A model generated the notes under the pieces. The model was not told the origin of the DNA. It saw nothing but the letters and a program-made list of their open reading frames with translations, and did no database searches. A DNA stretch of 32,000 nucleotides from Fibrobacter succinogenes subsp. succinogenes S85 (GTDB taxonomy: Bacteria > Fibrobacterota > Fibrobacteria > Fibrobacterales > Fibrobacteraceae): NCBI RefSeq assembly GCF_000146505.1, contig NC_017448.1:2340001-2372000 (forward strand), read 5' to 3'. Position 1 is the stretch's first letter, and each line of letters starts with the position of its first letter. A program made the translations under genes and the position numbers. Of the stretch, positions 1,267 to 22,017 are shown one piece after another.

Positions 1267-1321
1267 CGCCCCCACCTGCTCCTCATTAGCCACTTTGTGT
1301 GTCCCTTGTGTTGTGGCAGGG

Positions 1322-1352
1322 CGGTCCCGGTGAAAACCGGGGCCGTTTTTTA
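1322..1352 (+). terminator. intrinsic terminator after the GTPase gene
   Basis: Stem CGGTCCCGG / CCGGGGCCG with loop TGAAAA, followed by T6. It is homologous to the sRNA terminators further downstream. Confidence 0.7.
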
Positions 1353-1370
1353 TTTGGCAATTGAGGGCGC

Positions 1371-1544
1371 GGAGCCTAAAATTTCCCATTTTCACTCAAA
1401 AAAGTGTAAATTTAAGGTGTCCGGTCTGCATGGCCGGGTCGCAACTTGACATTTGATACAGACAACAAAAACGCCAATTTCGGGTGCGGCTGTTGCCAAC
1501 GGCCGCCTGGAACCCTTTATTTATGCAGGTTCCAGAGGGGTACT
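1371..1544 (+). promoter_or_regulatory. CRISPR leader copy L0 (internally deleted)
   Basis: Starts GGAGCCTAAAATTTCCCATTTTCACTC like the other leaders. It lacks about 80 nt, including the TTGTAA-N16-TATTAA promoter block. Confidence 0.7.
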
Positions 1545-1575
1545 CCCTGAAAAGCATTCCTCTCGCAAGAGAGAT
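1545..1575 (+). CRISPR. array A0: orphan single truncated repeat with no spacer
   Basis: CCCTGAAAAGCATTCCTCTCGCAAGAGAGAT runs directly into the T-tract and the sRNA promoter. Confidence 0.7.
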
Positions 1576-1625
1576 CTTTTTTCAAAAAACAGGTTGACAC
1601 TTTTGTTGTCTTTGTCGATATATGT

Positions 1626-1706
1626 TATGTCAGACGCTCGTTACGTTCGGCATAACATTTTACTCCTGAGGTTGGCGGTCCCGGTAAAAATCGGGGCCGT
1701 TTTTTA
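1626..1706 (+). ncRNA. trailer sRNA copy 0 (variant 1)
   Basis: TTGACA at 1594-1599, N17, GATATA at 1617-1622. Hairpin GTTATGTCAGACG..CGTTCGGCATAAC, single-stranded ATTTTACTCCTGAGG, then terminator stem plus T-run. Confidence 0.5.
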
Positions 1707-1724
1707 TTTGGCAATTGAGAGCGC

Positions 1725-1979
1725 GGAGCCTAAAAATTCCCATTTTCACTCAAAAAAGTGTAAATTTAAGGTGTCCGGTCTGCATGGCCGGGTCGCAACT
1801 TGACATTTGTTACAGACAACATTCGTGTTACCATGCCGAAATTGAGCTAAAAACGCCAATTTTGGGTGCTTTTTAGGGTTTTGTAAAGAAAAATTAAAAT
1901 TCTATTAAGTGCTTTTGCGTGCAGTTGTTACCAACGGCCGCCTGGAACCCTTTATTTATGCAGGTTCCAGAGGGGTACT
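1725..1979 (+). promoter_or_regulatory. CRISPR leader copy L1
   Basis: Conserved ~255-nt block. Candidate pre-crRNA promoter TTGTAA at 1881-1886, N16, TATTAA at 1903-1908. Hairpin CTGGAACC..GGTTCCAG sits just before repeat 1. Confidence 0.75.
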
Positions 1980-2379
1980 CCCTGAAAAGCATTACTCTCG
2001 CAAGAGAGATTAAGACTTAAACTCTTTTGTTGCTTTGAAGGGATTAAAATAGCCCTGAAAAGCATTACTCTCGCAAGAGAGATTAAGACTTTCATATTGT
2101 TACCTCCTAGAATTTTTCTATTCCCTCCCTGAAAAGCATTACTCTCGCAAGAGAGATTAAGACTTTGCAATCTTTGCCATGATCTTGGTCTTAGTGTTTT
2201 CCCTGAAAAGCATTACTCTCGCAAGAGAGATTAAGACAGAACACGCATTTCAGTATCGAGCCTTTCCTTGTCACCCTGAAAAGCATTACTCTCGCAAGAG
2301 AGATTAAGACCATCACTCATCTTTTTGAGTACCTCTGCAGGTACATCACCCTGAAAAGCATTACTCTCGCAAGAGAGAT

Positions 2380-2468
2380 GGCAACCTGGCGGTTGCCTGC
2401 TTGTCGGCTCGGTCATGCCCACGCAAGCGTGTTCGCGACGCTCGCCTCTGTCGCAGTAAGACTTGGAA
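2380..2468 (+). repeat. RSE, alpha type
   Basis: Splits the repeat that starts at 2349, after GAGAGAT. The 83-nt core ends GCAGTAAGAC, followed by linker TTGGAA and then CTCTCGCAAGAGAGATTAAGAC. Confidence 0.9.
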
Positions 2469-2558
2469 CTCTCGCAAGAGAGATTAAGACGGAGCTGGTT
2501 CCCATTCAGCAGATTCAATTGCTGATCCCCTGAAAAGCATTCCTCTCGCAAGAGAGAT

Positions 2559-2700
2559 GGCAACCTAGCGGCTGCCAGCTTGTCGGCTCGGTCATGCCCG
2601 TGCAAGCACGGTCGCGACACTCGCCTCTGTCGCAGTAAGACTTGGAAAGCGTAAAGCACTAACGTCATTGCAAGGAGTATAACGACGCGACGATCCACAA
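2559..2700 (+). repeat. RSE, alpha-prime type, with a 59-nt tail
   Basis: Core at 2559-2641 with hairpin 2 CGTG-CAAG-CACG. A unique tail at 2642-2700 precedes the terminal half-repeat. Confidence 0.85.
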
Positions 2701-2764
2701 CTCTCGCAAGAGAGTTTTTTTCAAAAATCTGGTTGACACTATTGTTGTCTTTGTCGATATATGT

Positions 2765-2845
2765 TATGTCAGACGCTCGTTACGTTCGGCATAACATTTT
2801 ACTCCTGAGGTTGGCGGTCTCGGTAAAATCGGGGCCGTTTTTTTT
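2765..2845 (+). ncRNA. trailer sRNA copy 1 (variant 1)
   Basis: TTGACA at 2733-2738, N17, GATATA at 2756-2761. Same hairpin, CCUC-containing segment and terminator as copy 0. Confidence 0.5.
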
Positions 2846-2924
2846 ATGTGGTTGACGTTCTTCTATATCAAAGAGATATAATGGTTGTCGGGCGCATGGG
2901 GCGTTCGGAAAAAAGAGGTAAAAT

Positions 2925-3020
2925 ATGAAAACTATTCAGCAAAGCATTTGGACTATTCCGTGGGGCGACATCCCGACTCCCCCGAAAATTTCATTTTTTG
3001 AGTCGGCGCTTTCATTCTAA
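2925..3020 (+). CDS. smORF1, 31 aa (MKTIQQSIWTIPWGDIPTPPKISFFESALSF)
   Basis: TTGACG at 2852-2857, N19, TATAAT at 2877-2882. SD AGAGGT lies 7 nt before the ATG. Conserved in 6 cassette copies, with synonymous-only changes in codons 5-23. Confidence 0.5.
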   Translation: MKTIQQSIWTIPWGDIPTPPKISFFESALSF

Positions 3021-3079
3021 AACGATAAAAACAGAAGGGTGCAATGTTGCACTGTCAAACCTTAACGGAGGATACCTCA

Positions 3080-3142
3080 ATGAGACCGATTGTCGCATCT
3101 GTTGATGAAACCGAAATCGAAATCCTTGCAAAACACTGCTAA
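3080..3142 (+). CDS. smORF2, 20 aa (MRPIVASVDETEIEILAKHC)
   Basis: SD GGAGGA precedes the ATG. Conserved in 6 copies; the differences are an in-frame 6-nt indel and a TAA/TGA stop swap. Confidence 0.4.
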   Translation: MRPIVASVDETEIEILAKHC

Positions 3143-3175
3143 TCAACGAATAAAATTTCAAACTAAAGCTTTAAA

Positions 3176-3204
3176 CCCCGGTGTCAAAAACCGGGCCTTT
3201 TTTG
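3176..3204 (+). terminator. terminator of the smORF module
   Basis: CCCGG..CCGGG stem followed by T6. Confidence 0.65.
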
Positions 3205-3221
3205 TTGTCAATTGGGGATGC

Positions 3222-3477
3222 GGAGCCTAAAATTCTCCATTTTCACTCAAAAAAGTGTAAATTTAAGGTGTCCGGTCTGCATGGCCGGGTCGCAATTTGA
3301 CATTTGTTACAGACAACATTCGTGTTACCATGCCGAAATTGAGCTAAAAACGCCAATTTCGGGTGCTTTTTAGGGTTTTGTAAAGAAAAATTAAAATTCT
3401 ATTAAGTGCTTTTGTGTGCAGTTGTTACCAACGGCCGCCTGGAGCCCTTTATTTATGCGGGTTCCAGAGGGGTACTC
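3222..3477 (+). promoter_or_regulatory. CRISPR leader copy L2
   Basis: Near-identical to L1. Confidence 0.75.
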
Positions 3478-3731
3478 CCCTGAAAAGCATTCCTCTCGCA
3501 AGAGAGATTAAGACTACTTTGCTTCGCAGCGTTGCTTATGGAAGAGCGTACCCCTGAAAAGCATTACTCTCGCAAGAGAGATTAAGACCTCTACGCTTAT
3601 TATAGATAATGAAGTTCTTAGGTTCTCCCTGAAAAGCATTACTCTCGCAAGAGAGATTAAGACCCTTACGCCAGTAAAGTGCAGTGTTAACGTTAAACAA
3701 CCCTGAAAAGCATTCCTCTCGCAAGAGAGAT

Positions 3732-3853
3732 GGCAACCTTGCGGTTGCCTGCTTGTCGGCTCGGAAATGGTCCCGCAAGCGGTCCCGCTTCGCTCGCCTC
3801 TGTCGCAGTAAGACCAAGATGTCATTCTGGAGCCGAAGGCGATAGAATCCATA
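3732..3853 (+). repeat. RSE, beta type, with a 39-nt hairpin tail
   Basis: Core at 3732-3814 (AAATGGTCCCGCAAGCGGTCCCGC variant). The tail CAAGATGTCATTCTGGAGCCGAAGGCGATAGAATCCATA is identical to the tail at 11208-11246. Confidence 0.9.
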
Positions 3854-3944
3854 CTCTCGCAAGAGAGATTAAGACTTTTCTAGCCCCTCCGCTATATGCT
3901 TTTCGAACCTTTCCCCTGAAAAGCATTCCTCTCGCAAGAGAGAT

Positions 3945-4036
3945 TGCAGCTACGCCGCCAAATGGTCGGTTCGGTCATGCCGGAATGCAAGCATTCCGTC
4001 GCGACGCTCACCTTATCCATTTGTAAGACTCTTTAA
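3945..4036 (+). repeat. RSE, gamma type
   Basis: 85-nt core GCAGCTACGCCGCC-AAATGG..GGAATG-CAAG-CATTCC..CCATTTG-TAAGAC plus linker TCTTTAA. Confidence 0.9.
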
Positions 4037-4128
4037 CTCTCGCAAGAGAGATTAAGACTTCTTGAGACGACGCACATACTCGCCTACGTTATGGACACCC
4101 TGAAAAGCATTCCTCTCGCAAGAGAGAT

Positions 4129-4328
4129 GACAATCTTCGATTGTCTGCTCCTAGGCTCGGCAATGGAAATGCAAGCATTTCCGCTGCTCTCGTCTTACGT
4201 CGCAGTGCGAGCCTGGCGGTTGCCTGCTTGTCGACTCGGAAATGGTCCCGCAAGCGTGTTCGCGACGCTCGCCTCTGTCGCAGTAAGACTAAAACAGGGT
4301 CCGTGAACCTGCCGAAGGGCCGCGAAGA
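4129..4328 (+). repeat. RSE, delta type (head-to-tail dimer), with a 39-nt tail
   Basis: The first monomer has GACAATC/GATTGTC and GGAAATG-CAAG-CATTTCC and is fused at ..CGTCGCAGTGCGAGCC.. to a second monomer that ends GCAGTAAGAC at 4289. Confidence 0.85.
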
Positions 4329-4392
4329 CTCTCGCAAGGGAATTTTTTTCAAAATTCTAGTTGACACTTTTGTTGTGCATAGCGATATAGTG

Positions 4393-4437
4393 TATGTTGA
4401 GTGGCTCCGGTGAAAACCGGGGCCGTTCGTGTTTTTG
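4393..4437 (+). ncRNA. degenerate, truncated trailer sRNA
   Basis: TTGACA at 4361-4366 and GATATA at 4384-4389 are kept. The 5' hairpin and the CCUC segment are deleted. The terminator stem is kept but the U-tract is weak. Confidence 0.3.
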
Positions 4438-4441
4438 GTGG

Positions 4442-4470
4442 TTGACATTTTCCCAAAACGAAAAGACATA
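4442..4470 (+). promoter_or_regulatory. candidate cas1-cas2 promoter, homologous to the smORF-module promoter
   Basis: GTGGTTGACATT (compare GTGGTTGACGTT in the cassettes). TTGACA at 4442-4447, N17, GACATA at 4465-4470. The following GGTTGTAGGGG parallels GGTTGTCGGGCG. Confidence 0.4.
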
Positions 4471-4526
4471 AAGGTTGTAGGGGTGCAAAGCCCCGGACAC
4501 AACTCAAAAAATGGGGAATCTATGCT

Positions 4527-5558
4527 ATGCATTTATACGTGACCGAACAGGGGACCCGCCTGGGGAAAAATGGCGGGCATTTGGTGGTCCAGCGCGACGG
4601 CTGTACCATAGACGATATTCTTTTGTCCGAGGTCGATTCGCTTTCGCTCTTTGGGGCGGTCCACCCGACGACAGACGCGATGCTTGCCTTGCTAGATAAG
4701 GGGGCGGACATTGCGTTCCTGAGCAGTGGCGGGCGGTATCGCGGGCGGCTTGTCTCGGCGGTGGGCAAGAATGTGCCTCTGCGGCTTTGCCAGTACGATG
4801 TCTTCCGCGACGATGATCGGGCTTTCGCGCTTGCAAAATCCTGTGTTGTCCGCAAGCTGGAAAACGGTTTGCGCGTCCTGGAGGCGTATTCCAAGAACCC
4901 GCACAATTCCTTCCGTTTTGAAAACCGCGACGAATACTTGCGGAACCTGAACGCTGTCCGGAGATTGCAAGGCTTTGATCGGGATGAACTACGGGGTTTT
5001 GAGGGCAATGGCGCGAGAATATATTTTGAAAACTTTGGTCGATGCCTGGCTTGCGGGCTGGATTTTCCCGGACGGAAATATCACCCGAGTACGGATCCCG
5101 TAAACGCGCTGCTTTCTTTTGGCTACACCCTTACGGCCCGTTCCCTGGAATCGCTGCTGGAGTCTTATGGAATGGACCCGATGTTAGGTTATCTGCACGA
5201 ACCCTCCTATGGCAGGAATTCGCTGGCGCAGGATATGCTTGAGGAGTTCCGGCATCCGCTTGTTGATAGGCTTGTGCTGTTCCTCTTCAATAGACGCGTT
5301 CTGGTGGCGGATGATTTTGAACAAAGAAATGATGAAAACTCGTCGGGACAGCTATTTCTGAAACCTGAAAAAATGCGTGTATTCTTGCACCATTACGAAG
5401 ATTTTGTGGCAAGGCCGAACGGCATCTATCAGGGGTTGGCGAATTTGCCTTGGCGCAGCGTGATGCGGCTCCGGGTCGAAGCGTTCCGTCGGTTGCTCTT
5501 GGAAGGAGTCGAGATGGCGGACTTGCAATGGAATCCCGAATACAGCGAGTCGGCATGA
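4527..5558 (+). CDS. cas1: CRISPR integrase Cas1
   Basis: 343 aa. Contains the typical Cas1 blocks DPVNALLSFGYTL and GYLHEPSYGRNSLAQDMLEEFRHPLVD. Confidence 0.95.
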   Translation: MHLYVTEQGTRLGKNGGHLVVQRDGCTIDDILLSEVDSLSLFGAVHPTTDAMLALLDKGADIAFLSSGGRYRGRLVSAVGKNVPLRLCQYDVFRDDDRAFALAKSCVVRKLENGLRVLEAYSKNPHNSFRFENRDEYLRNLNAVRRLQGFDRDELRGFEGNGARIYFENFGRCLACGLDFPGRKYHPSTDPVNALLSFGYTLTARSLESLLESYGMDPMLGYLHEPSYGRNSLAQDMLEEFRHPLVDRLVLFLFNRRVLVADDFEQRNDENSSGQLFLKPEKMRVFLHHYEDFVARPNGIYQGLANLPWRSVMRLRVEAFRRLLLEGVEMADLQWNPEYSESA

Positions 5559-5830
5559 AGTATCTGGTCGCGTTCGATATTTCAAATTCCCGCCGCCGCG
5601 GGAGGATGGTTAAGCTGTGCCTTGCGACTGGGTTTCGTGTGCAGAAGTCGGTATTCGAGTCGTTCTTGGACTCGGTGCAGGTGGCGAGTTTTGAAAACGA
5701 GGCCGAAAAGATTATTGATCCTGATACGGATTCGGTGAGGCTGTACCCGATTGACGCGCGGGCTGACGAAGGCGTGCGTATAGTCGGTTGCGGAAAGCGT
5801 ATTGAAAATCCCGCCTTCAAGGTGCTGTAG
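5555..5830 (+). CDS. cas2: Cas2
   Basis: ATGA overlap with the cas1 stop. MKYLVAFDISNSRRRGRM..VQKSVFE..DSVRLYPI is a Cas2 ferredoxin-fold signature. I chose the internal ATG over the longer ORF that starts at 5450. Confidence 0.9.
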   Translation: MKYLVAFDISNSRRRGRMVKLCLATGFRVQKSVFESFLDSVQVASFENEAEKIIDPDTDSVRLYPIDARADEGVRIVGCGKRIENPAFKVL

Positions 5831-6086
5831 CGGACCCAGAAATTTCCCATTTTCACTCAAAAAAGTGTAAATTTAAGGCGTCCGGTCTGCATGGCCGGGT
5901 CGCAACTTGACATTTGTTACAGACAACATTCGTGTTACCATGCCGAAATTGAGCTAAAAACGCCAATTTCGGGTGCTTTTTAGGGTTTTGTAAAGAAAAA
6001 TTAAAATTCTATTAAGTGCTTTTGCGTGCAGTTGTTACCAACGGCCGCCTGGAACCCTTTATTTATGCGGGTTCCAGAGGGGTACT
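5831..6086 (+). promoter_or_regulatory. CRISPR leader copy L3
   Basis: Starts immediately after the cas2 stop. Homologous to L1. Confidence 0.75.
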
Positions 6087-6188
6087 CCCTGAAAAGTATT
6101 CCTCTCGCAAGAGAGATTAAGACGTCGATCCTTCTTTTGGCCCCAACCTTCTTCTCCCCCTGAAAAGTATTCCTCTCGCAAGAGAGAT

Positions 6189-6280
6189 TGCAGCTACGCT
6201 GCCAAATGGTCGGTTCGGTCATGCCGGAATGCAAGCATTCCGTCGCGACGCTCACCTTATCCATTTGTAAGACTCTTTAA
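6189..6280 (+). repeat. RSE, gamma type
   Basis: Like 3945-4036 but with hairpin 1 GCAGC-TAC-GCTGC fully paired. Confidence 0.9.
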
Positions 6281-6370
6281 CTCTCGCAAGAGAGATTAAG
6301 ACTCAAATGGAGCTCGACAACCGGAGAATAGGCTTCATCCCCTGAAAAGCATTCCTCTCGCAAGAGAGAT

Positions 6371-6532
6371 TGCAGCCTGGCGGCTGCCTGCTTGTCGGCT
6401 CGGAAATGGTCCCGCAAGCGGTCCCGCTTCGCTCGCCTCTGTCGCAGTAAGACTAAAGAAAAGCGGAATATACCTCACAATGTCATCTCGGTCCTGTGCC
6501 GGGAACGCCATGTTTCTCTGAAGGTAAAAGAC
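6371..6532 (+). repeat. RSE, beta type, with a 79-nt tail
   Basis: Core at 6371-6453 (hairpin 1 GCAGCC/GGCTGC). The tail TAAAGAAAAGCGGAATATACC..GGTAAAAGAC is shared with 13425-13503. Confidence 0.9.
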
Positions 6533-6598
6533 CTCTCGCAAGAGAGATCTTTTTTCAAAAAACAGGTTGACACTTTTGTTGTCTTTGTCGATATATGT

Positions 6599-6679
6599 TA
6601 TGTCAGACGCTCGTTACGTTCGGCATAACATTTTACTCCTGAGGTTGGCGGTCCCGGTAAAAATCGGGGCCGTTTTTTA
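6599..6679 (+). ncRNA. trailer sRNA copy 3 (variant 1)
   Basis: TTGACA at 6567-6572, N17, GATATA at 6590-6595. Hairpin, CCUC segment and terminator are all present. Confidence 0.5.
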
Positions 6680-6762
6680 TTTTATGTGGTTGACGTTCTT
6701 CTATATCAAAGTGATATAATGGTTGTCGGGCGCATGGGGCGTTCGGAAAAAAGAGGTAAAAT

Positions 6763-14239: not shown

Positions 14240-14325
14240 TATGTCAGATGCTCATTACCGTTTGATTGAACATATTACCTCCGTTGTTGAAGGCGGCTCC
14301 GGTGAAAATCGGGGCCGTTTTTTTG
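14240..14325 (+). ncRNA. trailer sRNA copy 8 (variant 3)
   Basis: TTGACA at 14208-14213 and GATATA at 14231-14236. Stem GTCAGATG/CGTTTGAT, single-stranded segment ATATTACCTCCGTTG, then a terminator with T7. Confidence 0.5.
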
Positions 14326-14356
14326 TTGACGTTTGTCGCGCAAAAGCAGATGTATA
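14326..14356 (+). promoter_or_regulatory. promoter candidate sharing a block with the promoter at 180-210
   Basis: TTGACG, N19, TGTATA. Contains CGCAAAAGCAGATGTA, the same sequence found upstream of the GTPase gene. Confidence 0.35.
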
Positions 14357-14846: not shown

Positions 14847-15191
14847 TTATTTAATAGCGAATGCCGCAGTCATCAGTTTTGCTGACACTCCATGAGCTTG
14901 CAGAAATTTTGCGATCTTCTTGTCTCGTGCTGCAAATTTCCGTTTCGTTTCTGCTCTGCCCTTTGCTTCACCTTTCGCCATGCCTTCGGCTATACCTTCC
15001 TCTTTGCTAATCCGGATAGCGGTGTACAGACACGCATTGTGTTCGTCTTTATCAATCATACTCGTAGCAACCTCCGTAAGGAACTTGTTTGACGTTTTAG
15101 AAATCCGTAGTAGCCTATAGATCCCCTGAAGAACCGAGTCTATTTCCAGACAATATATCTTTTTCGTCGGTAGGCCGGCAAGGCCCCGCAT
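14847..15191 (-). pseudogene. probable C-terminal remnant of an Rpn/YhgA-like (PD-(D/E)XK transposase_31) protein
   Basis: The EEGIAEGMAKGEAKGRAETKRK repeat-like helix followed by ..KFLQAHGVS.. resembles Rpn-family C-termini. The N-terminal nuclease domain is absent. Confidence 0.35.
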
Positions 15192-15372: not shown

Positions 15373-16671
15373 ATGAGTCGAAAAATATTTGTGAGCTTTT
15401 TGGGATTGACTGATTATAAATTAGCCGTCTATAAATCTTGGCGTGGTGAAGGCTGTGCTTCCGAAACGCGTTTTGTGCAAAAGGCGATTGTCGAATTGTA
15501 TCCCAAGACTGATCTTGACAAAATAGTCATTTTTGTAACCAAAGAATCGCGGGAAAAAAACGAGCAAGCTCTTTTGGAAGATCTGAAAGAATTGGGCGTA
15601 GAACCTGAAAAAATTGAGACGGAATTGATCTCTGTGGATGTTTCTGATTTGTCCTTGACTTGGAATTGGTTTGAATCGCTTCAAAGCAAATTTGAGAAAG
15701 GGGACACACTTGTTTTGGATGTTACTCACGGCTTCAGGATGGTGCCTGTCGTATTCTCGGCTGCAGTTGCATATCTGAAAAGGGTGAAAAATGTTCACCT
15801 TGAGTCGGTTCTGTATGGCGCGTTTGAAATGAAAGTGGATGCTAAACCTATCGTTAATTTGAAGGATTTTTACACCATAAGCGACTGGACCGAAGGTGTG
15901 GGACGTTTGGTTGATACGGCGGATGCCTCTTTCTTGAGAAAAACGGCAGAGAGCGAGTCTAATGGTAGCTTTGCTGGGCTTAATAATCAGGATCTGTTGA
16001 ATAGTATTGATGATTTGACTAAAGCATTTCGTAATGTTGAATTGCAGAATATTGAAAGTAAGGCGCGAAAGTCTCTGGATCTGATTTGCAAGTTCCAAAA
16101 GCAATCAAGCGGAAAACTTGAGGGACAAGTCCTTCAAATGATTATAGATCAGTTCCAACCGTTAGTAAGTGAACCGCCTCTTGATGGCTCCTATTCGTTG
16201 GATTATCTGAAGCTTCAGCTTCGCCTCATTAAGATGTTTGCAGAATACAATTTGTACATGCAGGCTTTTACCGCAATGAATGAGTGGCTGGGCTCATTGG
16301 GAGTATTTTTAATGAAGCGCGGGAGCGAGTTTAGGTTTACTTCGCGGGAAAAAGATAGCTCGGCTCGATCTCATGCTGCGGTTTTTTTGAATATGTTGCA
16401 GCACCCTGCTGATTTTGAGGCTGAAAACGAAACAATCGCAATGCTTAAAGCCTCGTTGGATGAGGCTTACAATACCCTCTTTGAAAAATATACGACTCAA
16501 GATGAAATTTCGGATTTGCTGAAACAGTCAAAAAAAATTCGCAACGGGTTTAATCATGGCTGGACTGGGGTTCACCGCAAGGGGGCTCCAAAAGATTTAA
16601 ATGAGAAGTTTGATAGAGCGATGGCAACATTGAATAGAATTGTAGAAAAGATAGGAGACGACAATGGCTAA
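15373..16671 (+). CDS. csx1: CARF-HEPN ancillary nuclease, Csx1/Csm6 superfamily (DxTHG-motif family)
   Basis: The N-terminus KIFVSFLGLTDY and the LDVTHGFR (DxTHG) motif are typical of CARF proteins. The C-terminal IRNGFNHG matches the R-x4-H HEPN motif. Confidence 0.8.
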   Translation: MSRKIFVSFLGLTDYKLAVYKSWRGEGCASETRFVQKAIVELYPKTDLDKIVIFVTKESREKNEQALLEDLKELGVEPEKIETELISVDVSDLSLTWNWFESLQSKFEKGDTLVLDVTHGFRMVPVVFSAAVAYLKRVKNVHLESVLYGAFEMKVDAKPIVNLKDFYTISDWTEGVGRLVDTADASFLRKTAESESNGSFAGLNNQDLLNSIDDLTKAFRNVELQNIESKARKSLDLICKFQKQSSGKLEGQVLQMIIDQFQPLVSEPPLDGSYSLDYLKLQLRLIKMFAEYNLYMQAFTAMNEWLGSLGVFLMKRGSEFRFTSREKDSSARSHAAVFLNMLQHPADFEAENETIAMLKASLDEAYNTLFEKYTTQDEISDLLKQSKKIRNGFNHGWTGVHRKGAPKDLNEKFDRAMATLNRIVEKIGDDNG

Positions 16672-18181
16672 GTTTTTGTACGGTGCCGCAGTGCAAGGCA
16701 TCCAAGGCTTTATTTTTCAGACGAATAAGCTGCGGGATATTGTCGGTGCCAGTGAACTGGTGGAAAGAATTTGTACCACCGATTTTGACGAGTTTGCAGA
16801 ATCAAATGGCGGAGCGAACGACCCCAAGTCTATACTGCGAGCAGCGGGTAATATCAAGTATTTGTTCGAAAGCGAAGATGCTTGTAAAAAGGCTGTGCTC
16901 AAGTTCCCCAAGAAGGTTGTAGAGAATGCCCCCGGTATAACGATTAGCCAGGCGGTTGTTCCTGTTGAAGATGATGCGGATATTGCAGCCGCTATCGATA
17001 AATTGGAAGCCTCGCTCAGAGTTCAGCGCAACAGGCAGATGCGTCCTATCAATTTGGGATTTACGGGCGTTCTCCGTTCACGTTCTACGGGTTTCCCGGC
17101 TGTTGAAGTTCGTAAGGACAAAAATGGGCAAGACGAGTTCCTTGACAAGGCGACTCAAAAAAAGCGTGATGCATCAGAGACGCAGGCTCTTTCTAAAAAA
17201 GCATTTGGTTTTGATGTTCTCACTAAGCAGGTTGCATTTGAAATAGACCAGATTACCGGCAAGAACGATTGGATTGCTGTAATTCATGCTGATGGAAATG
17301 GTCTCGGTCAGGTCGTGCAGAAAGTCGGCAAGAAAACGGACGAGTTCAAGGCGTTTTCCAAAGCGCTGGACGAAGCGACTGTCGGCGCTGCGGTCGATGC
17401 GTTCAATGCGCTTGTTGAACGTAAGTATTTCGATGTGAAGGACGAGTCAAAATTGATACCGATTCGCCCGGTGGTGCTCGGTGGCGACGACTTTACTGTG
17501 ATTTGCCGTGCTGATTTTGCTGTTGAGTACGTACAAAAGTTTTTGGAATCTTTCGAGAAACGTACTGGCGAAGGCGTCATAGCAGAACTGCTCAAAAAGA
17601 ATGCCGTATTCGAAAACGGAAACAAGCTAACGGCTTGCGCAGGCATTGCGTTTGTCAAGTCTTCTTACCCGTTCTACTATGCCTACGATCTTGCGGAATC
17701 TCTTTGTTCCATGGCGAAAAAAGATGCCAAGAAACCGGAAAACCCGCGCTATTTGGCTCCTTCTTGTTTGATGTTCCACAAGGTACAGAGTAGCTTTGTC
17801 GAAAGTTTTGACAAAATTGTTGATAAAGAGCTGACTGCGTCGGGTTGTTTGTATGTATTTGGCCCATATTATCTCGCTGAAACTCCGTATCGCTGGACTG
17901 TGGATAAGCTGATGGAAGTGTGCGACTTGCTGGATGGCGAAGATGGTAATGCGTTAAAATCAAATGTCCGTCAGTGGCTTACGCTACAATCTCAAGATGC
18001 TGGTATGGCAAAACAGAAGGCGGAGCGCATCGTGAGCATTTTGGAAAAGAGTGACTTGCGTTCTATTGCAGAAGAATTGGTGCAGAACGAAGTACTACGC
18101 AATGGCAAGAAGTATTCCCCTGCATACGATGTCTTGTCGTTACATTCGGTCCGCTTTCAGGAAACTAGATCCGCAAAATAA
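16664..18181 (+). CDS. cas10: minimal Cas10 (cyclase/polymerase palm domains only, no HD domain)
   Basis: 505 aa. It starts directly at the Cas10 palm-1 motif VQGIQGFIF..LRDIVGAS. Also has VIHADGNGLG, an intact GGDD (VVLGGDDFTV) and ACAGIAFVKSSYPFYYAYDLAESLCSMAKK. Overlaps csx1 by 8 nt. Confidence 0.85.
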   Translation: MAKFLYGAAVQGIQGFIFQTNKLRDIVGASELVERICTTDFDEFAESNGGANDPKSILRAAGNIKYLFESEDACKKAVLKFPKKVVENAPGITISQAVVPVEDDADIAAAIDKLEASLRVQRNRQMRPINLGFTGVLRSRSTGFPAVEVRKDKNGQDEFLDKATQKKRDASETQALSKKAFGFDVLTKQVAFEIDQITGKNDWIAVIHADGNGLGQVVQKVGKKTDEFKAFSKALDEATVGAAVDAFNALVERKYFDVKDESKLIPIRPVVLGGDDFTVICRADFAVEYVQKFLESFEKRTGEGVIAELLKKNAVFENGNKLTACAGIAFVKSSYPFYYAYDLAESLCSMAKKDAKKPENPRYLAPSCLMFHKVQSSFVESFDKIVDKELTASGCLYVFGPYYLAETPYRWTVDKLMEVCDLLDGEDGNALKSNVRQWLTLQSQDAGMAKQKAERIVSILEKSDLRSIAEELVQNEVLRNGKKYSPAYDVLSLHSVRFQETRSAK

Positions 18182-18192
18182 GGAGTATTGAC

Positions 18193-18744
18193 GTGAATAT
18201 CAATTATACGATACAGTTTTTTTCGGGCTGGCATTGTGGCTCCGGACTTTCGGCAGGTGCCGATGTGGATACTTTGGTTGTCAAGGATGACGATGGCTTG
18301 CCTTTTGTTCCTGGCAAGACTATTAAGGGCCTTTTGCGTGAGGCCGTTGAAGATTATGCCGCATTGACGCAAGAAGTTTCTGCTGAACGCATTGATGCGG
18401 TTTTCGGTTCGTTTGATTCAAAAGAAAAGTTTTCACGAGGGGTTGCCTTTTTTGGCAATGCCGCTTTAAGTGATGACGAGGCTAAAGCTATAAAGAGCGA
18501 CAAATTGCAGCCGTTCCTGTACAAGAGACTTTCGGCTACGGCGATTGGCGAAAATGGTGTCGCAAAGGACCATAGCCTTCGTCGTATTGAAGTTGTTGTC
18601 CCATGCAAATTGCAGGGTAAAATTCTTGATATCCCCGAGGACTTTGTTGAAGTCTTGAAAAAGAGTATGGGGCTTATCAAACGATTGGGCTCCTGGAGAA
18701 ATCGTGGCCTTGGTCGTTGCACTTTTAAATGCGAGGGTTGCTAA
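18193..18744 (+). CDS. RAMP protein (Cas7/Csm3-like), 183 aa
   Basis: GTG start with AAGGAG upstream. Contains WHCGSG..D..VVKDDDGLPFVPGKTIKGLLREA and the C-terminal G-rich loop GSWRNRGLGRC. Confidence 0.8.
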   Translation: MNINYTIQFFSGWHCGSGLSAGADVDTLVVKDDDGLPFVPGKTIKGLLREAVEDYAALTQEVSAERIDAVFGSFDSKEKFSRGVAFFGNAALSDDEAKAIKSDKLQPFLYKRLSATAIGENGVAKDHSLRRIEVVVPCKLQGKILDIPEDFVEVLKKSMGLIKRLGSWRNRGLGRCTFKCEGC

Positions 18745-18746
18745 TA

Positions 18747-20222
18747 ATGTCTACTTTGAAATTTAAATGCACCTTGCTGACCGATGTAATCCTCAACCAG
18801 CACGCTGCTACTGAGGGCAACCAGTCAACACTTGACTTTATTCCTGGAAACAACTTCCTTGGAATTGTGGCAGGGAATGTCTATGCGGAACATCGTGACC
18901 TTGCTTTGGATATTTTGCATAGCGGAAAAGTTCGTTTTGGCGATGCGCATCCGGCCTTGAATGGCGTGCGCTCATTACGTGTACCGTCTTGTTTCTTTTA
19001 TCCAAAGCTTGGCAGCTATAAGGAGGAATGCTATGTCCATCATGGTATCCCTAACCTTGCTAGCGATGACCTCAAGAAAAAGCAACTGAAACAGTGCCGT
19101 AACGGATTCTTGGCATTTAACGATTCTAAGAGCTCGTTTACGGATGTCGTTCCTGAAAAATTCTTTGCGATAAAATCTGCACACGACAGGGAAAAGTTCC
19201 GTTCCAAGGATAGCCAGATGTATGGCTACGAGTCTTTGCGGAAAGGCTTGGAACTGTTTTTTGAGGTGGAAGTAGATGATTCCTTGACCACAGATGTCAA
19301 AGAACTTGTTAGCTCATTGCTTGTTGGGAAAAAACGCGTGGGCCGTTCCAAGACTGCTCAGTATGGCCTTGTTGAAATTGAAACGGTTGACTATGCTGAA
19401 CCCGTTGTGGAAAAGCGCAACGATGATTACGTAATTGTATATGCGGATGCCCGTCTTATCTTTTTTGATGAATACGGAATGCCCACATTTACGCCAACGG
19501 CAGAACAGTTGGGTTGCCCTGGTGGAGAAATTGTGTGGGAAAAATCGCAGGTGCGCACATTCCAGTATTCTCCGTGGAATTTCAAGCGCCAGTCTAGAGA
19601 TATGGACCGCTGCGGTATCGAGAAGGGTTCTGTATTTGTGGTGAGCGAAGTGAAAGATTTTTCAGGCACATCATGTTATGTAGGAGAATTCAAAAACGAA
19701 GGTTTCGGAAAGGTAATTTACAATCCGAAATTCTTGAGTTACGATGGGCAGGGTGCTGCAAGTTATGCTTATGAAAAAGCCTCGGAACCAGATGCTCAAA
19801 ATTCGTCTTTGAGTGCTAAGCGACCTGCCTGCGACAGTGTTCTATTGAATTATCTAAAACACGAACAACGGAAGTTTAACGGTCTGTCTCGCATTTATGC
19901 TTGTGTGAACAAGTTTGTGTCAGATGAATCAATTTACTGGTGTGGCGAAGAATCGTTTGCAAGCCAATGGGGTACTATCCGCAGTATCGCGTCACGACTT
20001 AATAGCCGCACCGAGATTATGGGCGAGTTGTTCAATTCCGAAAAAGCTTACCTGGAGCATGGTGTTGCTGCTGAGAAGTGGAATGAAAATTCGCGCAAGG
20101 CACGTTTGAAGGATTTCCTTGAAAGTACGGCAAAGCAGGAAGGCTTCTCCGATGTGGAATTCAAGTCGCTTGTTGTCAATTTGGCGGCCGAGATGGCTAA
20201 AAAGATTCAGGGAGGTGTATAA
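18747..20222 (+). CDS. large RAMP protein, Csx10/Cas5-like
   Basis: ATG at 18747 follows GAGGG. Contains STLDFIPGNNFLGIVAG and the G-rich loop GRSKTAQYGLVEIE. The size and operon position fit a III-D csx10. Confidence 0.65.
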   Translation: MSTLKFKCTLLTDVILNQHAATEGNQSTLDFIPGNNFLGIVAGNVYAEHRDLALDILHSGKVRFGDAHPALNGVRSLRVPSCFFYPKLGSYKEECYVHHGIPNLASDDLKKKQLKQCRNGFLAFNDSKSSFTDVVPEKFFAIKSAHDREKFRSKDSQMYGYESLRKGLELFFEVEVDDSLTTDVKELVSSLLVGKKRVGRSKTAQYGLVEIETVDYAEPVVEKRNDDYVIVYADARLIFFDEYGMPTFTPTAEQLGCPGGEIVWEKSQVRTFQYSPWNFKRQSRDMDRCGIEKGSVFVVSEVKDFSGTSCYVGEFKNEGFGKVIYNPKFLSYDGQGAASYAYEKASEPDAQNSSLSAKRPACDSVLLNYLKHEQRKFNGLSRIYACVNKFVSDESIYWCGEESFASQWGTIRSIASRLNSRTEIMGELFNSEKAYLEHGVAAEKWNENSRKARLKDFLESTAKQEGFSDVEFKSLVVNLAAEMAKKIQGGV

Positions 20223-21625
20223 TGGAAAGTTTTGCTAGAAGTAATAACGTCCGTTACTTGGCTCGTGTTGTTTTGCAGGCTGAAACTCCGGTGGTTATCG
20301 GGAGTGGAGATAAAGACTCCCTAACGGATTCCCTTGTACAAAAAGATGTAAATGGACTTCCGTATATTCCGGCGTCGTCTGTGGCGGGATGCCTTCGCCA
20401 TGCGTTTGCATCGAAGTTGGATGTCAAAGAATTGGAACGAGTTTTCGGTTATCAAAAGTCTGACGATGGTCAGGGCTCTCGTGTTGTATTTACGGATGGT
20501 CGTTTGGTTGGCCCTAGTGGCGTTGTTGATGGCATTCAAAATATCAATTTCGATACGGATGCTTTCTTTAGCCGTTTTGCCAAGTTGCCCATTCGCGATC
20601 ATGTCCGTATTTCGCACCATGGTGCTGCCGAAAAGACAGGAAAATTTGACGAAGAGATTGTGTTCAAGGGTTCTCGTTTTTGCTTTGAGATTGAGCTAGT
20701 GGGTGAGTCTAATGATGCACAGTATTTTGATTCACTGCTGGAACAGATGATGCATTCGGAATTCCGTATAGGAGCAGGTTCTCGTTCGGGCTTTGGCAAG
20801 GTTAAAATTGTTGAACTTAAAAAGGCGGCTCTGGATCTGACGAACGGTGAAGATTTGGAGAAATATATCGGCAAGTCATCTGACCTTTCTGATCCGACTG
20901 ATTTCTGGAAAGATCTTCCGAAAGAACGCGTTCAGGATTTGAATACGGAGGGCTGGACTCGTTACGAGCTGGAACTTACTCCACGTGACTTTTTCTTGTT
21001 CGCAGCGGGTTCTGGCGATAACGATGCCGATATATGTGCCGTTCGTGCTTCTCAGATAGAGTGGAATGATGGTAAGCCCGTCTTTACGCCGAACTTGTTG
21101 CTGATTCCTGGAAGTTCTGTAAAAGGAGCCATTTCTCATCGTGTGGCTTACCGCTATAACAAGCGCGTGGGTGTGACACTTGAAAAACTGAAAGAAGCTG
21201 CTGAGGCTGCAAATAGGGATATCGCTGATTTGATCAAGGAAAACACCGGCTGCAAAAACAAGGCGGTGCAGACTTTGTTCGGTTCTCAGGACAAGGATAA
21301 TTCTTGCCGCGGTCGAGTTCTTCTTTCGGATGTGATTCAGAAAAAGTCTAGTACCAAGATTCTGAACCATGTTTCTGTAGACCGCTTTACGGGCGGTGCC
21401 GTTGCAGGAGCGCTTTTCTCTGAAAAAGTCTGGTCGAAGGAACCTTCTGAAACGTATACATTGAAGTTCCTGCTGGAACCTGGAGAGGTTGATGCAGATG
21501 TACTCGGTGCTTTTGAAGATGCTCTCAAGGATATTGCCAAGGGTATGCTTCCTTTGGGTGGCGGCGTCAATCGCGGTCATGGTGTTTTTGAAGGCAAAGT
21601 TTTAAAAAATGGCGAGGTATTGTAA
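20222..21625 (+). CDS. fusion of two Cas7 (Csm3-like) RAMP domains
   Basis: Two RAMP cores: GSGDKDSLTDSLVQKDVNGLPYIPASSVAGCLRHA and LLLIPGSSVKGAISHRVAY. G-rich loop LGGGVNRGHGVFEG. TAATG overlap with the upstream gene. Confidence 0.8.
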   Translation: MESFARSNNVRYLARVVLQAETPVVIGSGDKDSLTDSLVQKDVNGLPYIPASSVAGCLRHAFASKLDVKELERVFGYQKSDDGQGSRVVFTDGRLVGPSGVVDGIQNINFDTDAFFSRFAKLPIRDHVRISHHGAAEKTGKFDEEIVFKGSRFCFEIELVGESNDAQYFDSLLEQMMHSEFRIGAGSRSGFGKVKIVELKKAALDLTNGEDLEKYIGKSSDLSDPTDFWKDLPKERVQDLNTEGWTRYELELTPRDFFLFAAGSGDNDADICAVRASQIEWNDGKPVFTPNLLLIPGSSVKGAISHRVAYRYNKRVGVTLEKLKEAAEAANRDIADLIKENTGCKNKAVQTLFGSQDKDNSCRGRVLLSDVIQKKSSTKILNHVSVDRFTGGAVAGALFSEKVWSKEPSETYTLKFLLEPGEVDADVLGAFEDALKDIAKGMLPLGGGVNRGHGVFEGKVLKNGEVL

Positions 21626-22017
21626 TGAATAGGACGATAAATATTGAACAGTGCCAAGGCTATATCTGGAAAAGCGATGCGGACAAGCCGCAGGTCTTTA
21701 ATGGTTGCGCTTGCAATCTCGTGCTAGATGATTCTGCGAATCCCTTTGTTCTGGAGGCGATGCTTTATGACGCTCAGACGCAGGACTCCTATATGATCAA
21801 GTATGTGGATGGCCGTCATCTTATTCAGGAGTATAATTTATTCAATAAGTTCGATGATGTTACTGAAATATCTGTTTTGCCGAACCGTATGGAGGGTATT
21901 CCTGAGCTTAAGCTGAAACAGTTTTGGAAAAAAACTCCTGATAAGTTGTGCAATGGTTTTGAAACATTAACTCCTGCTGAGATTGTTTTTGCAGGCTTTA
22001 AAAAGGTGGGCGAATAA
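21625..22017 (+). CDS. small type III accessory protein (130 aa), possibly Csx19-like; not obviously a helical Cas11
   Basis: Translationally coupled at both ends (TAATG). I recognise no motif. The composition looks beta-rich rather than all-helical. Confidence 0.5.
   Translation: MNRTINIEQCQGYIWKSDADKPQVFNGCACNLVLDDSANPFVLEAMLYDAQTQDSYMIKYVDGRHLIQEYNLFNKFDDVTEISVLPNRMEGIPELKLKQFWKKTPDKLCNGFETLTPAEIVFAGFKKVGE

Follow-up and report, generated by a model that had tools for sequence, protein, structure and literature searches.

A candidate small RNA unit behind the arrays of a type III-D CRISPR locus in Fibrobacter succinogenes S85

Results

A promoter-to-terminator unit follows each array

The window analysed here, a stretch of 32,000 nucleotides (nt) from Fibrobacter succinogenes S85, carries a type III-D CRISPR system. 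Eight copies of a short unit, and a ninth that lacks the hairpin, each follow an array in this locus. The unit likely runs from its own promoter to its own terminator and makes an RNA of ~75-85 nt, and it has the features of a conserved small RNA (sRNA) cassette. It is plausible, if still tentative, that the exposed ACAU...CUCC of this RNA occludes the start regions of mRNAs from cassettes of the same locus. The proposed target is smORF1, the first of two small open reading frames (ORFs) behind most copies. The features of the focal copy and of the cassette downstream of it are as follows.

6534..6556, plus strand: terminal degenerate repeat of the preceding array, from the sequence and the alignment of family D18, with the same junction in relatives
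6567..6595, plus strand: promoter-like element, -35 TTGACA at 6567-6572, 17-nt spacer, GATATA at 6590-6595
6602..6624, plus strand: 5' hairpin, arms GUCAGACG / CGUUCGGC with a 7-nt loop; 6602-6609 pairs with 6617-6624
6625..6646, plus strand: unpaired segment with the invariant ACAU (6628-6631) and CUCC (6636-6639); this is the stretch that a first-pass annotation had called anti-Shine-Dalgarno (anti-SD)
6647..6679, plus strand: intrinsic terminator from the terminator scan, a 12-bp GC-rich stem GGCGGUCCCGGU/AUCGGGGCCGUU at 6647-6674, then U6
6690..6762, plus strand: smORF1 promoter and 5' untranslated region (UTR), TTGACG-N17-GATATAAT, with a 5'-terminal hairpin at 6725-6746; paralogous to those of the sRNA
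6763..6858, plus strand: smORF1, 31 amino acids (aa), MKTTQQSIWTIPWGDIPTPPKISFFESTLSF; start region GAGGTAAAATATG, the proposed target
6918..6974, plus strand: smORF2, 18-20 aa, MRPIV[AT]SVDETEI(EI)LAKHC, co-transcribed with smORF1
7009-7027: terminator of the smORF1-smORF2 operon

The terminal repeat keeps a Cas6-type hairpin (CTCTCGCAAGAGAG), and a T-run replaces the ATTAAGAC tag, so that it looks like an intrinsic terminator of the array itself. The A-tract after it sits just upstream of the sRNA -35, and every sRNA copy starts 10-12 nt past the degenerate terminal repeat. A 31-nt promoter block, GGTTGACACTTTTGTTGTCTTTGTCGATATA, occurs eight times in the window at no more than one mismatch, with 0 occurrences expected by chance. 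The TTGACA-N17-GATATA promoter described in the first-pass annotation is therefore present in eight places, with the final T of the -10 missing; because GATATA lacks this canonical T, a consensus promoter scan of the window did not call it. The layout TTGACR-N17-GAYRTA also precedes smORF1, cas1, a 142-aa ORF and a GTPase gene, which indicates that the sRNA promoter is of the usual type in this locus.

In both the sRNA and the smORF1 mRNA, an invariant G opens the hairpin 7 nt after GATATA. This G, ~7 nt past the -10, is the likely +1, and the RNA would then begin with the inner stem. Since transcription is predicted to start there, the outer stem proposed earlier (GTTAT/ATAAC or TTCA/TGAA), which does exist in the DNA, probably lies upstream of the RNA. 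Folding gave the hairpin, the single-stranded stretch and the terminator in every variant of the sRNA (z-scores -3.5 to -5.3), in agreement with the architecture predicted at first pass. The terminator scan lists all nine stems in the window, each of 12 bp with a U6-8 run, and the probability that CUCC is unpaired is 0.8-1.0 in variants V1, V2 and V3, with values near 0.9 for V1 and V3. By sequence, then, an independent promoter and an intrinsic terminator delimit a short non-coding unit.

Rfam gave no match at the gathering threshold over the whole window and only chance-level ones (E >= 1.8) in 2300-3520, and a search of the literature found no description of these Fibrobacter elements. Two other roles were rejected by inspection. 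A transcription attenuator or a riboswitch leader acting on smORF1 does not fit, since the 5' arm of the terminator has no alternative antiterminator partner and a full second promoter follows. A tracrRNA-like (trans-activating CRISPR RNA-like) anti-repeat does not fit either, as complementarity between sRNA and repeat is lacking; V1 resembles the leader-repeat junction in the sense orientation only (UACUCCUGA vs UACUCCCUGA).

Copies in the window

The -35 elements of the eight copies start at 1594, 2733, 6567, 8077, 9791, 11280, 12404 and 14208. The positions in the first-pass annotation are these starts with an offset of +32, and its degenerate copy was confirmed at 4361. V1, including V1b, accounts for five of the eight copies and V2 for two; V3 is copy c8.

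1594..1708, plus strand: copy c1 (V1), after a leader and a single repeat; leads directly into the next leader, without smORFs
2733..2846, plus strand: copy c2 (V1), then smORF1 at 2925
4361..4436, plus strand: hairpin-less copy, promoter straight into terminator, upstream of the cas1 promoter
-35 at 6567, plus strand: focal copy, then smORF1 at 6763
8077..8194, plus strand: copy c4 (V2, the variant with the best complementarity to smORF1), -10 also reads TATAAT; then smORF1 at 8277
9791..9905, plus strand: copy c5 (V1), then smORF1 at 9987
11280..11397, plus strand: copy c6 (V2), then smORF1 at 11481
12404..12524, plus strand: copy c7 (V1b), UUAGG duplication in the unpaired segment; then smORF1 at 12603
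14208..14326, plus strand: copy c8 (V3), then the promoter of the 142-aa ORF (ATG 14402), not smORF1

The structure is conserved in related loci

A Cas1 scan of reference genomes yielded one related locus, L001, from an uncultured Fibrobacter metagenome-assembled genome (80% Cas1 identity; matches in Neisseria were irrelevant). A metagenome scan with the smORF1 alignment gave contigs L005-L012, contigs with homologues of the CARF gene gave L015-L024, and a scan of viral contigs gave no matches. The relatives added variants V1c-e, V3', V4, V4', V5 and V6, and a type III-B locus contributed a distant V7. Ten variants went into a covariance model, which found 24 strong copies in Fibrobacter contigs, plus the divergent V5 and V6. 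As far as sampled, the sRNA family is confined to Fibrobacter type III CRISPR loci.

Among 20 distinct homologues from the window and the Fibrobacter contigs, 96.2% of cells pair, and in five pairs of the two helices both partners change. Pairing in slid controls is 32-50%, and none of 500 shuffles reached the observed covariation score. The 20-sequence alignment was fitted to the covariance model and so somewhat favours structure; a hand-made alignment gave the same picture. The terminator stem pairs in 100% of cells. In the 5' hairpin, all nine pairs vary, 91% of cells pair and three pairs change on both sides, with roughly a dozen structure-preserving changes against a few disruptive ones; its sequence is almost fully replaced between lineages V1-V6. 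ACAU and CUCC are invariant in the V1-V6 alignment. The first-pass annotation had described three variants whose stems are kept by compensatory changes. The variants and stems are as described, but most of the changes are one-sided transitions via G·U, and only two or three hairpin pairs change on both sides.

G·U pairs abound in the stems, which are stable on the plus strand, and V3, V4 and V6 have no minus-strand fold at all. Given the many G·U pairs, the fold would form in plus-strand RNA only, which suggests that the structure is selected as plus-strand RNA and not as a DNA operator or a minus-strand RNA; a DNA operator in place of an RNA hairpin was ruled out on this ground. The family thus combines a conserved secondary structure with an accessible pairing motif, with the accessibility of CUCC low in V4' and V5.

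The order sRNA, then smORF1, is found in S85 (six of the eight copies), L001, L005-L011 and L019. smORF1 is absent downstream of c1, c8 and the copies in L006 and L008. L017 contains sRNA-like units and no smORF1 within 10 kb. Conversely, smORF1 occurs without an adjacent sRNA in L012 (= L001 13298), L015 (9853) and L024, where sRNA copies elsewhere could act in trans. In L024, an insertion sequence (IS) element with an rve-family transposase (378-1790) occupies the sRNA position upstream of an intact smORF1 cassette, and the U-run end of the sRNA terminator is the only remnant of the sRNA.

Two conserved mini-proteins

The window holds six copies each of smORF1 and smORF2, and others lie at 15686, 13386 and 9668 in L001 and at 9853 and 7320 in L015. 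Both mini-proteins are conserved across Fibrobacter type III loci. The smORF1 family has 24-31 aa and the core QQSIWTxPWGDIPTPP; the smORF2 family has 18-20 aa and reads M[RSK]PI[IV]AS[VI]DETEIEILA[KNR]HC. In relatives, smORF1 is followed directly by the CARF gene, the first of the effector operon. Neither protein matched any family, and smORF1 had no match in Pfam or PADLOC. smORF1 has no hydrophobic segment: its grand average of hydropathy (GRAVY) is -0.16, and the best 15-aa window reaches 0.17, which is not transmembrane-like.

Complementarity to start regions is uneven

The first-pass annotation had read the unpaired segment as matching the smORF1 translation start, and had proposed duplex energy against shuffled controls as the check. 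The reverse-complement strings it quoted are correct. We compared each duplex with shuffles of the sRNA segment that keep CUCC. With the start region only, energies were -7.1 kcal/mol for V1 (P 0.26), -8.6 for V1b (P 0.19), -12.3 for V2 (P 0.03), -11.1 for V3 (P 0.04) and -7.4 for V4 (P 0.51); V2 and V3 passed narrowly, whereas V1 and V4 failed. Full-molecule co-folding gave P values of 0.26 (V1), 0.87 (V1b), 0.12 (V2), 0.06 (V3) and 0.69 (V4). With a longer target window of -20 to +25, the results were as follows.

V2 with smORF1: -16.5 to -19.0 kcal/mol, P 0.003-0.005
V3 with smORF1: about -12 kcal/mol, P 0.045
V6 with smORF1: -13.7 kcal/mol, P 0.008
V6 with the CARF start region: -17.9 kcal/mol, P 0.002
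V1, V1b, V4 and V5 with smORF1: -7.3 to -11.5 kcal/mol, not significant

The strong energy of V2 arises because GCUGAACA also pairs with codons 3-6. In a string-level test against the smORF1 start region, V2, V3, V5 and V6 each gave P of about 0.02. The CARF start region, GGAGAAAUAUG, is matched by V4 at 10 of 11 positions and by V5 at 12 of 13, both better than against smORF1. Altogether, P was below 0.05 in 9 of 34 variant-target tests, which suggests a diffuse anti-start-like signal without a clear cognate target. The proposed anti-SD match thus beats chance for V2 (P about 0.003-0.03, according to the target window), and marginally for V3 (P about 0.04), but not for V1 (P 0.26-0.5).

Several results weigh against occlusion of the smORF1 start as the general role of the sRNA. 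For V1 and V1b (five of the eight copies), V4 and V5, pairing with smORF1 does not exceed that of shuffles (P 0.14-0.8). The start region GAGGTAAAATATG is identical in the six S85 copies and in relatives, so the target is invariant while the unpaired segment of the sRNA drifts. Among 54 real start regions of these loci, 6-78% match the sRNA at least as well as smORF1 does. smORF1 was never among the best eight sites by energy in whole-window duplex scans; in these RNAduplex scans liberal loops let GC-rich coding sites dominate, and we take from them no more than that smORF1 is unremarkable. Access to CUCC is poor in V4' and V5. A form of the unit without hairpin or unpaired segment is itself conserved, which suggests that the unit may matter without base pairing. 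Finally, ACAU may derive from the promoter-hairpin flank and CUCC from the terminator flank, in which case the anti-start look would be an accident of the junction. The case for silencing of the neighbouring smORF1 by the sRNA is accordingly weak and uneven across variants. The self-contained sRNA unit adjoining smORF1 that was proposed at first pass stands, but a specific anti-smORF1 regulator is unsupported.

The unit is a paralogue of the standard cassette of the locus

An alignment from promoter to hairpin showed that sRNA units and smORF1 cassettes are colinear paralogues: GUCAGACG...CGUUCGG of the sRNA corresponds to GUCGGGCGC...GCGUUCGG of the smORF1 mRNA, and the spacing from -35 to hairpin is common to the sRNA, smORF1, smORF1b and L022 ORF151 cassettes. 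The terminator with its pyrimidine/GU-rich flank is likewise a module that also ends GTPase genes (1318-1349) and smORF1b in L001. At L001 13298 (= L012), a smORF1 homologue, MKNVHQSIGVLPWGNLPDPPIGKRG, is driven by a promoter and hairpin of the sRNA type and has the same terminator at its end; by its sequence, this is an sRNA unit with the cargo still in place. Elsewhere the trailer promoter drives smORF2 alone (L001, 9585), the terminator only (S85 4361, L001 9835 and four L015 copies) or an unrelated 151-aa ORF (ORF151, L022). GCAUUAACAAUC follows the hairpin in the L022 5' UTR, and GUCCCUCCAGGG lies in the 3' flank of smORF1b; their presence in other cassettes means that ACAU and CUCC may be inherited module flanks and not a designed anti-start. 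Judged from these alignments, the sRNA unit is a cargo-less paralogue of the standard cassette of the locus and not a purpose-built antitoxin.

The minimal promoter-terminator form, with a predicted RNA of ~40 nt, is more than 90% identical across three genomes and lies just upstream of the cas1 promoter in S85, L001 and L015 (copy 3304). Its copies are the following.

S85: 4361-4436
L001: 9835-9912
L015: 1510, 3304, 5530, 8505

The strongest rival to start-region occlusion follows from this paralogy. The unit could be an empty cassette, carried along in the amplification of the module, that is transcribed and terminated and has no sequence-specific target in trans. Any effect would then be that of a boundary element, through promoter or terminator activity at the array edge, such as insulating the downstream promoter from read-through or supplying an AT-rich upstream element. 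We consider such a by-product or boundary element a real possibility, albeit a doubtful one. The varied cargo of the trailer promoter, the shared terminator module, the cargo-bearing unit at L001 13298/L012, the conserved hairpin-less form in three genomes, the replacement of the sRNA by an IS element beside an intact smORF1 in L024, and the uneven, nonspecific complementarity to smORF1 all favour it. Against it, a hairpin kept through nearly full replacement of its sequence is not expected of a neutral remnant, ACAU and CUCC do not vary in V1-V6, and low P values are enriched in the pairing tests.

Tandem amplification of the array modules

The region 1300-14330 consists of nine tandem modules of 1.1-1.7 kb that are 90-96% identical over long stretches (families D2, D8 and D9). 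The module order is leader, array, sRNA unit, smORF1, smORF2, terminator, next leader. The eight sRNA copies are products of this tandem duplication and hence not independent placements. The claim that the unit lies behind every array holds for the S85 copies; it is specific to S85, because the whole module was amplified there, and fails for the V5 and V6 units in L015, which are not behind arrays.

The first module (1320-1710), a leader followed by one repeat, amounts to an empty array, and one module (4361-5860) has cas1-cas2 in place of the smORFs. The CRISPR repeat is 37 nt long (plus strand: CCCTGAAAAGCATTCCTCTCGCAAGAGAGATTAAGAC). The effector genes at 15373-24284 encode a CARF/TIGR02221 protein, Cas10d, Cas5_IIId, Cas7_IIId, TIGR04423 and TIGR03986, and the type III-D assignment comes from the Cas10d, Cas5_IIId and Cas7_IIId matches (E-values 1e-149 to 1e-162). 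Other genes of the locus are listed here.

250-1266: gene of a dynamin/LeoA-like P-loop GTPase, flanking the modules; its terminator is the same module as that of the sRNA
4527-5558: cas1, amid the arrays
14850-15191, minus strand: gene of a 114-aa protein in the gap between the last array and the effector operon, PADLOC 'putative invertase' C3a178 (E 3e-38)
15373-16671: CARF protein gene, first of the effector operon

Other unusual elements of the arrays

Structured RNA elements of ~85 nt replace spacers inside the arrays, with 16 copies in the window, and are probably the most unusual feature of the locus. In each array they occupy the trailer-proximal end, immediately ahead of the sRNA unit. 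Each begins past a normal repeat hairpin, carries an altered 8-nt tag (AUGGCAAC, AUUGCAAC or AUUGCAGC in place of AUUAAGAC) and ends in ...CGCAGUAAGAC, after which comes a truncated repeat. Their consensus fold comprises 26 pairs, six of them with two-sided compensatory changes, and Rfam gave no match to these inserts. A second repeated non-spacer insert, family D20 (TTGCAGCTACGCTGCCAAATGGTCGGTTCGGTCATGCCGGAATGCAAGCATTCCGTCGCGACGCTCACC...TTGTAAGAC), is apparently structured and also follows an altered tag.

~85-nt inserts, window: 2379-2463, 2558-2645, 3731-3815, 6370-6455, 7591-7675, 9304-9390, 10946-11030, 12210-12295, 13341-13425 and others
~85-nt inserts, relatives: L001 9017-9100 and 15330-15415; L015 7005-7090; L017
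D20 inserts: window 3944-4036, 6188-6280, 9590-9682; L001 13116-13205

In a related Fibrobacter with a type III-B locus (L017, 9832-9960), the same promoter type drives a short region that lies immediately upstream of the CARF gene and contains AAAGGAGA and a repeat-like hairpin, CTCTCGCAAGGGGG; this element could be a regulator resembling CRISPR RNA (crRNA) or CreR.

Among the spacers, those at 10803-10840 and 10878-10915 are adjacent and identical over 36 nt, and L001 has identical repeat-spacer units at 11778-11815/11854-11891 and 12226-12263/12302-12339. Such identical neighbours point to local repeat-spacer duplication and not to independent acquisition. Some ordinary spacers (2090-2126; L001 8577-8612) are antisense to a ribosome-binding site (RBS) and ATG, for example TTTCATATTGTTACCTCCTAG, as expected of type III crRNAs directed at the 5' ends of mRNAs. 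These spacers show that anti-SD-like strings arise easily in this locus.

Discussion

Proposed start-region occlusion and its stronger form

Occlusion of start regions would work as follows. A sigma-70-like promoter at the array trailer would start an RNA of ~75-85 nt with a 5'-terminal hairpin, 20-30 unpaired nt containing ACAU...CUCC, and a strong intrinsic terminator at its end. Amplification of the whole array-sRNA-smORF module in tandem gave the eight copies in the window. The exposed pyrimidine stretch would pair with SD and start regions of neighbouring cassette mRNAs and lower their translation, the candidate targets being smORF1 and, in relatives, also the CARF gene at the head of the effector operon. 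V2, V3 and V6 keep good predicted pairing, and the major variant V1 looks degenerate for this function.

RsaE/RoxS-class RNAs of Firmicutes are trans-encoded sRNAs that block ribosome binding via an unpaired C/U-rich motif. The Fibrobacter sRNA resembles them in its predicted promoter and Rho-independent terminator, in a short unpaired CUCC between two stem-loops, in predicted pairing over SD and start codon, and in a structure conserved among relatives. It differs in that it is known by sequence only, its complementarity is short, AU-rich, uneven and not start-region-specific, and it is embedded in a CRISPR locus, repeated eight times and without an Rfam match.

A stronger form of start-region occlusion would make the sRNA a dedicated antisense regulator, not crRNA-like, that lowers translation of both smORF1 and the CARF protein, its dose rising with array number so that array content is coupled to effector and accessory expression. 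We regard this extension as improbable. A known parallel lies in CreR and its kin, crRNA-like regulatory RNAs that come from degenerate mini-arrays (bioRxiv 10.1101/2023.03.10.532045; 10.1101/2023.03.03.530964). Both would be non-coding regulators in a cas locus that may tune cas or associated genes, and in relatives the CARF start is a possible target. CreR, however, acts through a DNA-binding Cas effector, of type V-A, and repeat-derived handles, whereas the Fibrobacter sRNA has an ordinary hairpin and terminator and would pair as plain antisense.

Possible anti-SD pairing in cis

The same segment might instead act in cis, in read-through RNA, by folding onto the smORF1 start ~125 nt downstream, so that only transcripts from the proximal promoter are translated. 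The minimum free energy fold of the V2 read-through RNA (8112-8300) does pair GCUGAACAUAU-GUACCUC with the SD, AUG and codons 3-6 of smORF1. In the V1 read-through RNA, however, the start region stays free and the two paralogous hairpins pair with each other. The terminator is strong, so that read-through should be rare, and some copies (c1, c8 and those in L006 and L008) lack a downstream smORF1. We think this mechanism quite unlikely.

Proposed toxin-antitoxin and CreTA-like roles

The first-pass annotation had likened the arrangement to a type I toxin-antitoxin (TA) pair or a CreTA-like safeguard, with the sRNA as the antitoxin that blocks a toxic smORF1 and so protects the CRISPR locus. 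Pairs such as tisB/istR-1 and zorO/orzO have a trans-acting, separately transcribed antitoxin RNA; complementarity in type I TA systems is usually 18 nt or more, and the toxin is typically a hydrophobic, membrane-active peptide. A small ORF beside an sRNA whose unpaired region complements its translation start fits this pattern, as do the placing of the sRNA immediately before smORF1 in six of the eight copies and in several relatives, its location inside a CRISPR-Cas locus, and the match of V2 and V3 to SD and start codon. The particulars do not: smORF1 is not hydrophobic and matches no toxin family, complementarity is much shorter (only 11-13 nt, interrupted by bulges, in most variants), most copies lack it, with none in V1 and V4, and, judged by adjacent copies, smORF1 persists without the sRNA in L012, L015 and L024. 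A toxin gene, by contrast, is not expected to be kept without its antitoxin.

CreTA shares with the Fibrobacter unit small non-coding genes within a CRISPR-Cas locus and the idea of guarding that locus. CreA, a crRNA-like RNA flanked by degenerate repeats, directs a type I effector to the creT promoter, which is repressed through DNA binding (PMC8501985, PMC9458426, PMC10097628), and CreT RNA consists of an SD and a mini-ORF (PMC8501985, PMC10097628). The system here is type III-D, and the plus-strand sRNA has neither repeat handles nor an SD and mini-ORF of the CreT kind. Comparison of the 36 canonical spacers and every array segment with the reverse strand of the sRNA, smORF and leader units turned up nothing beyond chance-level matches, of no more than 13 nt; no spacer or repeat-flanked RNA was complementary to the promoters or transcripts of the sRNA and smORFs. 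Both a CreA guide and a DNA-binding effector of this kind are missing from this locus, and a safeguard of the TA or the CreTA type is very unlikely.

Possible minus-strand coding

Least probable, and barely credible to us, is that the reverse complement of the segment is the RBS (GGAG(G)-N4-6-ATG) of a CreT-like mini-ORF of 5-9 codons, with the plus-strand RNA as its cis-antisense. Every variant does read SD and ATG on the minus strand, giving MFSQTVMSA in V2 and MFNQTVMSI in V3 before a stop codon, and the known CreT RNAs have this form. V1, however, encodes only MLCRT before a stop, and V4 and V5 encode 25 aa or remain open-ended, so neither sequence nor length is conserved, and tandem rare codons are absent. 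No minus-strand promoter turned up in the window scan, and none is seen conserved downstream of the unit in relatives; the strong promoter and terminator are on the plus strand, where alone the G·U-rich stems fold. We rejected the mini-ORF as the principal explanation for its lack of conservation and of a minus-strand promoter in the window.

What the unit may mean for these loci

If the unit proves to be an empty cassette only, it would be a caution that tandem amplification can make a hitch-hiking element look deliberately placed behind arrays, and that junctions of promoter and terminator modules can mimic an anti-SD. If instead the RNA is expressed and occludes the smORF1 or CARF starts, a type III CRISPR locus would have, as a built-in part, an ordinary antisense sRNA that tunes the genes of that locus, a control layer distinct from the crRNA-like CreA and CreR of type I and type V systems. 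The sRNA would also open a way into two uncharacterised mini-proteins, both conserved, that accompany these arrays. From its sequence, the sRNA is a candidate new member of an ordinary class, the small base-pairing RNAs, in an unusual genomic setting.

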